Below, piece by piece: positions 27,689 to 45,252 of a DNA stretch of 64,000 bases (position 1 is the stretch's first letter; every line of letters starts with the position of its first letter). The stretch spans positions 2,144,001-2,208,000 of the forward strand of contig CBDCDC010000002.1 of NCBI GenBank assembly GCA_965215195.1, given 5' to 3'. The stretch comes from Candidatus Latescibacterota bacterium. Lineage in GTDB: Bacteria; Latescibacterota; UBA2968; UBA8231. The notes under the pieces are model-generated. The model was not told the DNA's origin, ran no database searches, and worked only from the letters and a program-made list of their open reading frames with translations. The translations under genes and the position numbers were made by a program.

Positions 27689-29026
27689 TCACTCCGCATC
27701 GACTAGTTGCCGTGCCAGTGATCCCTCGCGCGTCAGGGCATACACCAAGAGATTCACCCCCAAATCATACACCAACGGCTCTTCGGCACTAGCGAAAGAC
27801 GGGCTGTTCATTGCGTTCTCCGCCAAAGACCAATCCAGCAACTCCTTACCTTTTCCCCCAAAAAAATCGGCGTAGCCCTTCATCGAGTACACCCCGACCA
27901 ACTGCTCCCCAACTACGATGCCCTCCAAATAGTCCGGGGTGCGCGGCGGGTATTCTCCAACGGTAAAGTGCATATCGCGCATCCCGCGCGGCAGGCTATT
28001 TACATCGTAGAAGCAATGATAGAGCGGATGGGTTAGCCCCAAGCGGGTAAACTGCCAGTCCTTCCATTCTTGATAACCCACCGCTTGGAAGCTGGCGCGA
28101 ATGAGGGAACGCACCGCCGGAATGTCTAATTCATCGTCGCTGTATTTGGGTCGCAAAAAGCGCACAATCTCGGCAAACAGGAAGCCGCCGCTGGTCAAAT
28201 ACCCCCCTAAATTGGCTGCCTCGCTGTCCGTAAACTCAAAGGGGGTAGCGAAGGTCATGAGGACGAAGGGGACTTGCAAAAGCTGGGGATCGTCGAGCCG
28301 GACCGCGTCGCGCACTTCGACGTGAACCTGCGTCTTGGCGACCATCTTATCGGCCAACCCGTGCAGCATCCGCCGTTCTATCACTTGGCGCGGCATCTCA
28401 TAATAGAAGCGCCCTTGTGAGGAGTTGGTCTGTTCGGACTCAGCCCGTTCAATAGAAGGGCTATAAACACCGGACATATAGAGGAAGCCCTTGAGCTTGC
28501 GCCGGTCTTGGGGATCGACCACCACCATCGCCCGGTGCCGACCCGTGTCCATCGCCTGCACATCCAGCAACTCCAAGCCCAAGTCAATCTCATCGGCCCC
28601 TTGCCGCGTCCCTTCCAACGCTCCAGCCCGCAGTTGCGGACCAATGTGCCGCGCCGGGAAATCCGGCACCGGCAGCACCAGCCGATTCGGCAGCGATGCC
28701 GACGGCAGCCGAAGCGCCGATGTTTTGAACACCGGCAGGGGACGCGACGCCGACGGTGCCGGCCGCATGGCCACGACCGGGGCGGCTTGCAGGGCGGCGC
28801 GGCGCACCAACGGGCGCTCGCGGGGCCGTTGCCGCCGGCTGAGGGTGCGCGGCAGCGGCCGCTTCTTGGTAAACTTCACCATGATCGGCGGTTGCACGGG
28901 AAAGTGCGTGACCCGCTCATGGCGTGGGAGTCCGAAGATCACCAGCAGATGCAAAGCCAGCGACAACGCCAAGCAGCTTTGCAGCTTTCTATTGCTTCGG
29001 AACGGGACTTTCCACGGCCGTTTCAT
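27689..29026 (-). CDS. DUF4159-domain protein (copy 4, in the complete operon)
   Basis: 445 aa; translationally coupled to GT2 (ATGA overlap). Confidence 0.8.
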   Translation of the reverse strand: MKRPWKVPFRSNRKLQSCLALSLALHLLVIFGLPRHERVTHFPVQPPIMVKFTKKRPLPRTLSRRQRPRERPLVRRAALQAAPVVAMRPAPSASRPLPVFKTSALRLPSASLPNRLVLPVPDFPARHIGPQLRAGALEGTRQGADEIDLGLELLDVQAMDTGRHRAMVVVDPQDRRKLKGFLYMSGVYSPSIERAESEQTNSSQGRFYYEMPRQVIERRMLHGLADKMVAKTQVHVEVRDAVRLDDPQLLQVPFVLMTFATPFEFTDSEAANLGGYLTSGGFLFAEIVRFLRPKYSDDELDIPAVRSLIRASFQAVGYQEWKDWQFTRLGLTHPLYHCFYDVNSLPRGMRDMHFTVGEYPPRTPDYLEGIVVGEQLVGVYSMKGYADFFGGKGKELLDWSLAENAMNSPSFASAEEPLVYDLGVNLLVYALTREGSLARQLVDAE

Positions 29027-30102
29027 CGGCTCCCGTCCTTTCGCAAAGGATGGAGATCGAGCATTAACGTACGCTCCGCCATTTCGCCGCTCGATATGGT
29101 CTGATGCGTTTCGTGAAACGCCATCAGGCTAGGGAGGCGCATCTCCTCTGGAATTAGGCGATCCGGCCATAGAGCAGCGAGCCAAAATTCGATCAGGCAT
29201 AGCTTGGGATCCTCGTTCTTCTCCACCATGTGGGCTATAGATCTATGCCGTTTTTGCGATTCTGCGAACGCATTTTGGGGGCTGAAAAAGTCGTGGTGAT
29301 GATACAGGTGATAGCTCTGCGCCTTGGCTGCAAAGCGCATGTTGCAGCCATTCCGCATGAGGCGATAGGCCAAATCCCATCCCTCAGAGTGGGGCATCTC
29401 TTCGTCAAACCCACCGACTTCCTCAAGGGCGACGCGCGGGGCCGAAGCATTGTGTGGATAAAAACTGATCCAACCGATCGGCGAATCGGGCACGTTGTCA
29501 AAGAGTACTTGTACTTGGTCTTGCATTAATTTTATCTCCGGGAACGGATATATCCCTTCTCGGGCTAATGGGGTGATCGCAGCGAAATCGGACTGTATCA
29601 TCGCCTCGGTCACCCGAAATTTTTCTGGGTACATACGTATAATATGAGCAACCGATGCCGGAGCGTCCTCCCAAGGAAGGCCACTATGCGGGTCTTGGAC
29701 ATATTCCAAGCGAGGTAAGCAATAGTGGAATCCGCTCGTTACGCCGTTGTAGCGCTGAAATAGGTGCCAATGTTGGGCTAACCAATCGGGACCCGGTAGC
29801 GCGTCGCCATCTAAAAAGGCGACTACCTCTCCCCGCGCTTCCGCGATACCGATATTCCGCGCTCGACAGCGTCCTACATTGGTACGCAAGGGAATGACTT
29901 TTATGGGCATGTGCTCATACTCACGCAGAAAATCCCCTGTTCCGTCCGTGCTGCCATCGTCCACCACGATAACCTCAAACTGGCCTTCGGGGAGTGTTTG
30001 AACGGCCAAGCCGCTTAAAACAAGCCGCAACCGATCGCGCTGATTGTGTGCGGCAATGACGACAGAAATATCCATTTCGCTAGCTCCCTTATATACATTC
30101 AA
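29023..30102 (-). CDS. Glycosyltransferase family 2 (copy 1)
   Basis: DDGSTDGT, FLDGD, GGFDE motifs; paralog of 17575-18651. Confidence 0.9.
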   Translation of the reverse strand: MNVYKGASEMDISVVIAAHNQRDRLRLVLSGLAVQTLPEGQFEVIVVDDGSTDGTGDFLREYEHMPIKVIPLRTNVGRCRARNIGIAEARGEVVAFLDGDALPGPDWLAQHWHLFQRYNGVTSGFHYCLPRLEYVQDPHSGLPWEDAPASVAHIIRMYPEKFRVTEAMIQSDFAAITPLAREGIYPFPEIKLMQDQVQVLFDNVPDSPIGWISFYPHNASAPRVALEEVGGFDEEMPHSEGWDLAYRLMRNGCNMRFAAKAQSYHLYHHHDFFSPQNAFAESQKRHRSIAHMVEKNEDPKLCLIEFWLAALWPDRLIPEEMRLPSLMAFHETHQTISSGEMAERTLMLDLHPLRKDGSR

Positions 30103-45000: not shown

Positions 45001-45252
45001 GCCCAACGTGCCGAACAGCAGCCGCCCGTCGGCTTCCTCGGCAATGGCCATGACCGTCAGATTCGGCAGGCCATCTTCGAGGCCAAAGCGATCGAATCGC
45101 GCACTGTCGAACCGGCTGACGCCGCCGTCGGCCGTGGCGATCCAGAGAAAGCCTTGGCGGTCTTGGTAGAGGTCTTCGACGTGCATCCCGCCCAGCCCGT
45201 CAAAGACGGTGTACTGGGTGCTTAACACATGCTCAAAGGATAGGGCGCTCAT
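42088..45252 (-). CDS. Sigma54-dependent activator with N-terminal two-component-regulator propeller and Y_Y_Y sensor domains
   Basis: Repeats D..G.LW(I/L)GT..G; Y_Y_Y (YRHRL...WS...[12 protein letters not shown]); [37 protein letters not shown]-terminal HTH. Confidence 0.9.

Follow-up and report, generated by a model that had tools for sequence, protein, structure and literature searches.

A conserved sigma54-associated gene cluster of Latescibacterota organized around leader-bearing cysteine-rich precursors

Introduction

What does a prepilin-type peptidase do when it is encoded among small cysteine-rich precursors, thioredoxin-fold proteins and glycosyltransferases rather than with a pilus? 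The question is raised by a locus at positions 27689-45252 of a 64,000-nucleotide stretch of Candidatus Latescibacterota DNA (GenBank assembly GCA_965215195.1, contig CBDCDC010000002.1, positions 2,144,001 to 2,208,000), hereafter the window. A preliminary description, made from the sequence alone, had proposed an undescribed system in which disulfide-rich precursors are matured by a dedicated peptidase and by redox, glycosylation and cross-linking enzymes, halfway between a peptide cluster and a pilin-like structure. That observation was largely right, in that the locus is a conserved maturation-type cluster, but its pilin-like, glycosylated and cross-linked aspects found no support. Comparison of related loci indicates that the cluster is real, conserved and coherent around leader-bearing Cys-rich precursors and is not a chance juxtaposition. 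We propose, with a probability of roughly one-half, that it is a sigma54-gated, lineage-specific line for making, exporting and oxidatively folding small disulfide-rich mini-proteins that are secreted or placed on the surface. The analysis also adds to the preliminary description an IS630-family element in one thioredoxin gene (Trx2), a second unit at 21260-21886, the occurrence of the precursor leader on three longer Cys-rich FlgD_ig proteins, and a surrounding array of about 50 kb.

Gene content of the locus

Families were assigned to the 43 open reading frames (ORFs) of the window with Pfam and NCBIfam, and membrane or cytoplasmic placement was judged by hydropathy. All cluster genes lie on the minus strand, and the ORF list confirms the overlapping stop and start codons that had been reported, in three pairs (35549-35552, 30089-30102 and 29023-29026). 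From upstream to downstream, the features are:

42088-45252 (minus): sigma54 enhancer-binding activator, 1054 aa; Pfam Sigma54_activat E 6.4e-68, Reg_prop 2e-41
41854-41945 (no strand): tandem 19-bp units, 4.8 copies (five units), 100% matches, each with the palindrome ATACG-N6-CGTAT
41753-41779 (minus): hairpin with an 11-bp stem, then a T-run, between repeats and promoter; kept in 11 aligned upstream regions
41715-41730 (minus): sigma54 -24/-12 promoter, TGGCACGGAACTTGCA
41571-41714 (minus): 5' untranslated region (UTR) of about 145 nt with a Shine-Dalgarno site; conserved, with a matching stretch in nine loci
41289-41570 (minus): precursor 1, 93 aa, 10 Cys, preceded by AGGAGG
41105-41260 (minus): long hairpin and U8 run after precursor 1, terminator or attenuator; -74.4 kcal/mol, z -5.5
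38862-41066 (minus): FG-GAP propeller with a FlgD_ig/type IX type-A sorting domain and an ordinary signal peptide; likely ATG at 41045
37927-38748 (minus): 273-aa protein with a precursor-type leader, two Cys-rich modules (14 Cys) and a FlgD_ig/type IX sorting domain
37290-37880 (minus): p196, 196-aa membrane-anchored protein with a CxxC (C105, C108) and a DGI[TS]GAT motif
36119-37276 (minus): Peptidase_A24, 385 aa, polytopic GxGD aspartyl peptidase, FlaK-like; PF01478 35.0 bits against a cut-off of 26.5
35549-36100 (minus): Trx1, membrane-anchored thioredoxin-fold protein, ResA/TlpA-like, CDAC motif
35230-35552 (minus): 5' part of Trx2, CPYC motif, cut by IS630; the 113-aa ORF spans 35211-35552
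~34010-35229 (plus): IS630-family element inside Trx2, two ORFs (HTH_32, DDE_3); boundaries within about 2 bp
33802-34009 (minus): 3' remainder of Trx2, aligning to intact orthologues
32575-33780 (minus): TPR protein, 401 aa, cytoplasmic by hydropathy
30089-32563 (minus): fusion of a GT1-type (GT-B, UDPGT-like) glycosyltransferase with Transglut_core (GT-B/TGase), cytoplasmic
29023-30102 (minus): GT2 glycosyltransferase; Pfam 97 bits
27689-29026 (minus): DUF4159 protein with an N-terminal transmembrane (TM) anchor, one of four window paralogues

The cluster recurs in two arrangements

A 15-sequence alignment of the A24 peptidase led to 23 loci (L001 to L023) from species-representative genomes, whose titles are nearly all Candidatus Latescibacterota, with a few Gemmatimonadota or Rhodothermales and one distant archaeal locus (L021). 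A leader-bearing Cys-rich ORF lies within 10 kb in every one of the 19 assessable bacterial loci (9 type-1, 8 type-2, L018 and L022), a count that leaves out four loci at contig ends (L002, L006, L020 and L023) and the archaeal one. The routine lack of such ORFs from homologous operons, named in the preliminary description as grounds for abandoning its proposal, is thus not what these loci display.

Two cluster types can be told apart. In type 1 (11 loci, with A24 proteins 76-88% identical to that of the window) the order is precursor, FG-GAP, in some cases the Cys-FlgD protein, p196, A24, Trx1, Trx2, TPR, GT-B/TGase, GT2 and DUF4159, with TPR, GT-B/TGase and GT2 in 9/11. In type 2 (seven full loci and a second copy in L009, with proteins 34-48% identical to those of the window) the promoter is followed by A24, p196, Trx1, Trx2, a precursor of 110-122 aa, often FG-GAP, and then GT-B/TGase, GT2 and TPR, the last three being present in five of the seven. 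The peptidases of the two types are 37-40% identical, and both types occur together in OZ220690 (L008, L015) and OZ247580 (L001, L017). Within the wider set of A24 relatives, about 43 cluster representatives share 72-100% identity, eleven share 37-45% and a few are more distant; most of the relatives are annotated with PF01478. Relatives of the GT-B/TGase fusion were found only in the same lineage and divide into the same two groups by identity.

The region has been heavily rearranged, with two insertion sequence (IS) elements, gene remnants and many paralogues, and could on these grounds be taken for no system at all, but for housekeeping genes (a prepilin peptidase, cytochrome-maturation thioredoxins and envelope glycosyltransferases) beside an expanding adhesin array, the small ORFs not being genes. 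Such an account has to contend with a gene order kept in two paralogous versions across 18 full clusters, with A24 and GT-B/TGase families found only in this lineage, and with small ORFs that keep leader residues between types, Shine-Dalgarno sites and even Cys counts; we consider it highly improbable.

No description of this gene combination was found in the literature searched (main texts, without supplements), in agreement with the earlier view that the conserved unit around the precursors is undescribed, and searches on DUF4159 and on Cys-rich secreted proteins of sponge symbionts likewise gave no description of the cluster. The available part of a genomic paper on sponge Latescibacterota reports generic clusters resembling those of peptides that ribosomes synthesize and that are modified after translation (RiPPs) and has no mention of prepilins, type IX secretion or sigma-54 (PMC12993501). 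The cluster has so far been found only in Latescibacterota, many of them from sponges.

A shared leader on variable Cys-rich cores

Precursor 1 consists of a leader (residues 1-44, ending AAA) and a 49-aa core with 10 Cys that ends in CCVCP. Further leader-bearing proteins of the window are:

21260-21547 (minus): precursor 2, 95 aa, core with 8 Cys, end CECVP
7528-8334 and 6742-7509 (minus; span 6742-8334): two further proteins with leader, two Cys-rich modules and FlgD_ig

The first 39 residues of precursors 1 and 2 are identical and their cores are unrelated; the same leader heads the three longer Cys-rich FlgD_ig proteins (37927-38748, 7528-8334 and 6742-7509). Its n-region has the consensus L..EF..S.SG....R.G and is followed by a hydrophobic segment and then by AxA. 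Because leader residues are invariant across both cluster types (L4, S10, S12, G13, R18, W25 and G32, with E6, F7, G24 and G38 near-invariant), the n-region appears to be under protein-level selection.

Searched against 1.84 billion proteins, a profile of the leader matched 85 representatives at E <= 0.001, of which 36 reach E <= 1e-10; most are 75-120 aa long, and the only two named hits are both Candidatus Latescibacterota. The precursor sequences have no credible family in Pfam (24 tested) or NCBIfam (22 tested), where matches were at chance level. Among 99 distinct short members, 93 have the SxSG motif; in these 93, the hydrophobic segment is immediately preceded by G or A in 87 and followed by an AxA site in 76. 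An ending of C-x-C plus 0-3 residues is present in 34/76 AxA members, a set with a modal Cys count of 8 and a median mature length of 49.5 aa. Since the predicted mature part contains an even number of Cys in 33 of the 34 complete precursors with a CxC end, thiol-disulfide chemistry on the precursors is plausible, and their earlier characterization as disulfide-rich holds. The cores form classes that are conserved from genome to genome: precursor 1 belongs to a GYSAGCDEAT...CWLDSNC class, and precursor 2, together with the modules of the longer proteins, to a C..C..C..CC..C..CxC class. On these sequence features, the best reading of the precursors is that they form a new, uncurated family of small secreted disulfide-rich proteins.

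AlphaFold2 models the precursor 2 core as a compact strand-helix-hairpin domain (pLDDT 83-91), with the leader at low confidence. The top fold hits of this core, which are not significant, are bacteriocins of the laterosporulin type, which share a small alpha/beta disulfide-rich domain: laterosporulin 3 (6lwy) gives TM 0.58 on the target and an rmsd of 2.6 A over 42 columns, and 6lwy and 4ozk have E values of 1.3 and 1.8. Laterosporulin is leaderless according to the Protein Data Bank (PDB) title, whereas the cluster peptides have a 44-aa leader, and there is no sequence similarity. The laterosporulin hits and those to monellin were set aside as not significant.

Separately, a search of the ESM Atlas with precursor 1 (41292-41570) gave top scores of 0.84 and 0.83, below the 0.9 level and useful as a lead only. 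The two matched clusters consist of hypothetical proteins about 90 aa long, and their known members come most often from Candidatus Poribacteria. Candidatus Poribacteria is another sponge-associated phylum.

A FlaK-like peptidase without filament genes nearby

The A24 protein has several hydrophobic segments, and its catalytic residues D33 and D93 (GxGD, here G-A-G-D93) are invariant in 15/15 aligned homologues, as is a PFAP motif. FlaK (3S0X) is the only solved relative found; the FlaK equivalog model NF040695 gives 31 bits against the 330 it requires, and two distant relatives (P0058 and P0059) carry archaeal A24 C-terminal domains. The cluster peptidase thus resembles archaeal FlaK/PibD (A24B) as a GxGD membrane enzyme with both catalytic Asp residues, and its putative substrates resemble archaeal class III substrates in having Gly just before the hydrophobic segment. 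In the available text on archaeal A24 enzymes, the class III signal is marked by G, A or S in position -1, just ahead of the H-domain, and by a charged residue in position -2 (PMC4371748), and such signals are not confined to fibre subunits, being described on sugar-binding proteins of the Sulfolobus bindosome (PMC3047682). Unlike the FlaK/PibD systems, however, the cluster is bacterial and has no ATPase or platform gene nearby. Its leaders differ from archaeal class III leaders in a long (about 20-35 aa) and conserved n-region, in a charge at -3 and in AxA as a second site, and its cargo is a mini-domain with 8-10 Cys.

These features bear on whether the products are pilin-like. The core set of type IV filaments, as given in the available text of PMC13705601, comprises an assembly ATPase and a platform protein encoded with the pilin and peptidase. 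As the preliminary description had stated, no pilus ATPase, platform or secretin family is found among the 43 window ORFs, and we found none among the 36 flanking ORFs of six type-2 loci, which vary by locus; the cluster therefore does not map onto a type IV pilus (T4P), Tad or archaellum-like locus. It might still be supposed that A24 cuts after Gly and that the product keeps its helix and either assembles or stays anchored as a 'mini-pilin', as in type IV pilins or the Sulfolobus class III sugar-binding proteins. An A24 gene with intact catalytic residues stands beside the precursors in every assessable locus, G or A precedes the hydrophobic segment in 87/93 precursors, and n-region conservation far exceeds what a Sec signal needs, all of which favor this supposition. 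Apart from the lack of assembly genes, it is countered by the absence of an acidic residue at +5, by the charged residue at -3, by the conserved AxA (76/93), and by the same leader on fusions to the type IX C-terminal domain (CTD), a route needing a soluble periplasmic intermediate. The pilin-like half of the earlier proposal is accordingly weak, the precursors looking more like soluble cargo than fibre subunits, and we judge a fibre or an anchored mini-pilin very unlikely.

Membrane-anchored redox proteins

By hydropathy, p196, Trx1 and Trx2 are each N-terminally anchored, p196 with a single anchor. In p196 the CxxC and [ST]GAT motifs are invariant in 12/12 sequences, and the best fold match of its model is RnfG (7zc6_G, E 3.6e-4, TM 0.51), followed by NqrC. 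Its homologues score 14.7-19.1 bits against PF04205 FMN_bind (threshold 22), below it in 4/4 and always at the same motif. In the label of FMN-binding CxxC protein given by the preliminary description, the CxxC is upheld by its invariance, and the FMN-binding part has a sub-threshold Pfam match to which the predicted RnfG-like fold adds support. The likeness to RnfG/NqrC lies in an N-terminal anchor and a domain with a flavinylation-type [ST]GAT motif; p196 differs in standing alone, with no other Rnf or Nqr subunits, and in the added invariant CxxC. A flavin beside a CxxC is the logic of Erv/QSOX-type disulfide generators, and these flavin-linked sulfhydryl oxidases may serve as a functional analogy for p196.

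Trx1 matches ResA (E 7.5e-8) but scores only 17.9 where the Pfam cut-off is 26; six of the seven correctly placed sequences keep its CxxC, one type-2 copy lacking the second Cys and a mis-placed eighth row (L018) having been left out of the count. Trx2 reaches 32 bits against the AhpC-TSA cut-off of 26, with CPYC/CPHC invariant in 7/7 sequences, and its intact orthologues have 176 aa (L001, L004, L011). The two thioredoxin-fold proteins of the earlier account are thus upheld by their conserved CxxC motifs, with the reservations that Trx1 is below the cut-off and Trx2 is split.

The split is caused by the IS630-family element, which is 1.2 kb long, lies on the strand opposite to Trx2 and has imperfect terminal inverted repeats (16/20) and a CTAG target. 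The operon copy in the window is damaged by it, and polar effects may extend to the downstream TPR and glycosyltransferase genes. The genes listed in the preliminary description are therefore present on the minus strand, except that Trx2 is broken and the FMN-binding label is sub-threshold, and the unit, earlier called co-oriented, is neither uninterrupted nor co-oriented throughout. An ORF at 34171-34749 (minus) was rejected as a gene: it lies within IS630, antisense to the transposase genes, and has no family match.

Glycosyltransferases and the comparison with glycocins

Because the TPR, GT-B/TGase and GT2 proteins have no hydrophobic segments, they should be cytoplasmic. The closest solved relatives of the GT-B part are the natural-product glycosyltransferases CalG2, YjiC and OleD, GHC673 and H720 are invariant in the transglutaminase-like part, and the top NCBIfam matches of GT2, EpsD and MftF, are both below cut-off. 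DUF4159 has no match among PDB sequences. Because DUF4159 and GT2 genes also follow FG-GAP genes far from A24, we regard them as tied at least equally to the FG-GAP cargo.

Glycocins are defined by a dedicated ABC exporter with a C39 peptidase and by a double-glycine leader, and in the sublancin cluster the precursor is accompanied by a GT2 and thiol-disulfide oxidoreductases. The available text on sublancin and pallidocin likewise sets a small disulfide-bonded precursor beside a GT2 and thiol-disulfide oxidoreductases (PMC6405829, PMC12457901). The present cluster resembles these in its GT2 and in Trx1 and Trx2 with their conserved CxxC. It differs from them in a Gram-negative-type envelope with membrane-anchored periplasmic redox proteins, in the additional GT1-transglutaminase fusion, FlaK-like peptidase, RnfG-like protein and sigma54 control, and in cores with 8-10 Cys in place of a hairpin with two or three disulfides. 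No SunT-type ABC/C39 gene is present in the window, and the leaders are Sec-like with AxA; MacB/HlyD genes adjoin two of six type-2 loci, with no C39 peptidase match reported.

A glycocin-like RiPP, in which GT2, GT1-transglutaminase and TPR would glycosylate and perhaps also cross-link the peptides within the cytoplasm before export and disulfide bonding, would account for the presence of GT2, a natural-product-type GT1, TPR and oxidoreductases in one operon, for a conserved leader with a variable core and a terminator after the precursor, and for the invariant transglutaminase Cys and His. However, transporter and leader are not of the glycocin type, the trio is absent from 4/18 full clusters, the same Cys modules stand in tandem in type IX cargo proteins of 255-330 aa, and the core is predicted to fold confidently without modification. 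We consider this explanation distinctly unlikely. Glycosylation or cross-linking of the peptides, as first proposed, has the presence of the genes in its favor; the trio is cytoplasmic by hydropathy and absent from 2/11 type-1 and 2/7 type-2 clusters, and the analogy to glycocins fails on transporter and leader type. In our reading the cluster is neither a pilus nor a glycocin cluster.

FG-GAP propellers and type IX sorting

The FG-GAP protein (29.6 bits) and the Cys-FlgD protein at 37927-38748 (27.4 bits) pass the type-A CTD model TIGR04183 (cut-off 23), and no type IX sorting domain is found by Pfam or NCBIfam in the 93-aa and 95-aa precursors. The FG-GAP and the 255-273-aa Cys-rich proteins thus resemble type IX cargo in ending with a TIGR04183-passing domain, whereas the short precursors have no CTD and the secretion machinery is not in the window. 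No paper linking Latescibacterota with type IX secretion was found in the literature searched. Within the same operon, FG-GAP proteins have an ordinary signal peptide and the special leader is found on all Cys-rich proteins, whether or not they carry a sorting domain; the leader therefore tracks the Cys-rich module and not type IX export.

The system might instead be centred on FG-GAP proteins, with type IX-sorted propellers (adhesins or host-contact proteins of a sponge symbiont) as the products, the mini-proteins as their ligands or partners travelling to the surface with them, and the glycosyltransferases and DUF4159 building a glycan or anchor. Several observations fit. Cassettes of precursor followed by FG-GAP recur: L004, L007, L010 and L022 each have two such pairs, and L011 has three; FG-GAP proteins that follow class-A cores are 66-72% identical to the window class-A partner and those after class-B or other cores 53-63%; DUF4159 and GT2 follow FG-GAP genes away from A24 (window 16229-18651; L022); and the FG-GAP proteins satisfy the type IX CTD model. 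Yet 8 of the 10 FG-GAP genes of the window have no precursor in front, shared descent of neighbors explains the identity pattern without binding, and other genes come first after the precursor in L014, L015 and L019. A system centred on FG-GAP proteins is in our view unlikely, though deserving of attention.

Sigma54 control of two precursor units

The activator combines N-terminal Reg_prop propellers and Y_Y_Y with an AAA+ sigma54 domain and a C-terminal helix-turn-helix (HTH), has no receiver domain and no TM segment by Pfam and hydropathy, and has orthologues upstream of precursors in L003, L005, L007, L009 and L011. The tandem palindromes, 140-216 bp upstream of the sigma54 promoter, are its presumed binding sites. 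The window contains a second unit:

21260-21886 (minus): second unit with enhancer, sigma54 promoter and precursor 2
21831-21886 (no strand): second palindrome set, three sites
21692-21707 (minus): second sigma54 promoter, identical in sequence to the first
21040-21110 (minus): terminator hairpin after precursor 2; -28.5 kcal/mol, z -5.6
16229-21004 (minus): genes after precursor 2, namely FG-GAP/FlgD_ig (18878-21004), GT2 (17575-18651) and DUF4159 (16229-17578)

The palindrome ATACG-N6-CGTAT has 8 exact sites in the window against 0.03 expected, confined to these two places, and the promoter word TGGCACGGAACTTGCA has two exact matches against 0.01 expected, both at the two units. The half-sites co-vary across genomes as ATACG..CGTAT, CCACG..CGTGG and CCACA..TGTGG when the upstream regions of L001, L003, L005, L007 and L011 are compared with those of the window, L008 and L009, as expected if a DNA-binding protein acting as a dimer co-evolves with its sites. 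A TTGGCA(C)..N..(T)GC element aligns in 11 upstream regions, some of which deviate from the strict -12 TTGC; the strict promoter pattern is present in 9/23 loci, the remainder being variants according to the alignment, and in type-2 loci the sigma54 promoter precedes the A24 gene by about 60 nt. The locus thus has the AAA+ activator, the -24 GG/-12 GC promoter and the upstream sites of a sigma54 regulon, with rpoN outside the window, and family scores, these counts and the folding energy of the hairpin bear out the activator, enhancer repeats, promoter and terminator of the preliminary description.

The DNA of the second unit (21431-21959) is 91.5% identical to that of the first (41454-42018), the similarity ending within the precursor gene. 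Since both units have identical binding sites, the second probably relies on the activator encoded at 42088-45252. Immediately upstream of its enhancer array, an IS5-like transposase gene (DDE_Tnp_1 and DUF772; 22033-22935, plus) occupies the position where type-1 loci hold the activator gene.

Among the RNA elements, the hairpin at 41753-41779 may be an activator-gene terminator or a bending site. A consensus fold of the 5' UTR has two predicted helices with 1/27 pairs compensatory, and we claim no RNA element there; an Rfam search of the whole window gave no match within the cluster. The terminators after precursors 1 and 2 have a common outer stem, and in the terminator of precursor 1 the loop also contains a palindromic insert of about 110 nt, which may be a small element of mobile or recombinational origin.

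Proposed pathway

In our proposed pathway, the soluble propeller-type sensor/activator would bind three to five tandem palindromes in response to a signal and fire the -24/-12 promoter. The short precursor would be transcribed strongly, the hairpin terminator passing part of the transcription to the downstream genes. The leader would mark Cys-rich modules rather than general type IX cargo and would keep the precursor tethered to the membrane, close to the anchored Trx1, Trx2 and RnfG-like CxxC protein, which may introduce and shuffle four or five disulfides. The FlaK-like GxGD peptidase may then trim the n-region at the cytoplasmic face, and signal peptidase I would cut after AxA to release the folded domain. 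The products, about 50 aa long, would be compact mini-proteins of alpha/beta type that are made along with FG-GAP propellers; as free domains they may reside in the periplasm, outside the cell or bound to partners, and as modules of type IX-sorted proteins they would reach the surface. The cytoplasmic TPR, GT1-transglutaminase and GT2 proteins, with DUF4159, may add a glycan to a target.

A number of points weigh against this proposal. Every enzymatic step is read from families and motifs. At the candidate A24 site the invariant Arg stands at -3 and not at the -2 of archaeal substrates, as these are given in the available text of PMC4371748, and the paralogue at 7528-8334 is without Gly before the hydrophobic segment. 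Moreover, A24 may act elsewhere, on another substrate, because the conserved AxA would suffice for ordinary Sec export. For p196, the PF04205 score is 14.7 bits against 22, model confidence is medium (pLDDT 69.8), and no ApbE-type flavin transferase is found among the 36 flanking ORFs of the six type-2 loci. The type-1 cluster of L009 is without p196 and L006 without a Trx2 match, the trio is absent from 4/18 full clusters, and 8/10 FG-GAP genes of the window have no precursor in front. Finally, a Foldseek comparison of the precursor 2 model with the PDB gave no match at E <= 0.001. A predicted complex from the A24 alignment and a 45-aa leader alignment scored 0.28 against a mark of 0.32, which speaks neither for nor against binding.

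We also speculate, with considerable reserve, that in bacteria a FlaK-type GxGD protease was recruited away from filaments and processes a dedicated bipartite leader on a large, uncurated family of mini-proteins of defensin size with four or five disulfides, that a relay of a periplasmic flavin-CxxC protein (RnfG-like) and two anchored thioredoxins generates disulfides, self-contained and independent of DsbB/VKOR, and that the products pair with integrin-like FG-GAP propellers at the cell surface of sponge-associated Latescibacterota. In a bolder variant, the released n-region peptide might feed back on the propeller-type sigma54 activator.

The surrounding array and neighboring genes

The cluster is one stretch of a paralogue array of about 50 kb, in which FG-GAP/FlgD_ig genes are present 10 times, DUF4159 genes four times and GT2 genes twice, along with several remnants of genes. 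The segments at 27253-27683, 25427-25853, 23079-23511 and 1794-2268, each about 430 bp long, are 82-90% identical to one another, and about 190 bp within two of them (27491-27683 and 25661-25853) match the sorting-domain (3') ends of FG-GAP genes at 86-95% identity; on this pattern the segments look like remnants from recombination among paralogues. A WD40 protein (8347-9609, minus) with a 126-bp unit repeated 6.2 times is embedded in the FG-GAP array. It is of a 'eukaryote-like' repeat-protein kind noted in sponge symbionts.

A 470-aa protein with a weak AAA_22 match (45286-46698, minus) adjoins the window cluster, and relatives with 73-89% identity lie 3' of DUF4159 in L003 (20584-21153) and L007 (20557-21153). 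Further neighbors, in 49557-52667 and 61253-62872, encode an NYN-domain protein, a GFO/IDH/MocA oxidoreductase, a radical SAM protein (plus strand) and a CotH kinase-family protein, none of which recurs in the related loci examined. A thiamin pyrophosphate (TPP) riboswitch at 57910-58006 (minus; Rfam RF00059, 70.6 bits against a cut-off of 54.3) lies upstream of genes for a TonB-dependent receptor (55466-57868) and thiamin pyrophosphokinase (54796-55461), and by its gene content this looks like a thiamin uptake/salvage operon.

Implications

If the proposed pathway is correct, the precursors would constitute a new family, and the A24 peptidases would have a new role outside pili and archaella. 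The redox proteins would be a candidate flavin-based route to periplasmic disulfides in bacteria. The leader motif would offer a simple handle for mining such peptides, which as scaffolds might be of use in peptide engineering. For the biology of these uncultured animal symbionts, it would mean compact, hypervariable, disulfide-rich mini-proteins under tight sigma54 control, plausible mediators of interactions with the host or with neighboring cells.

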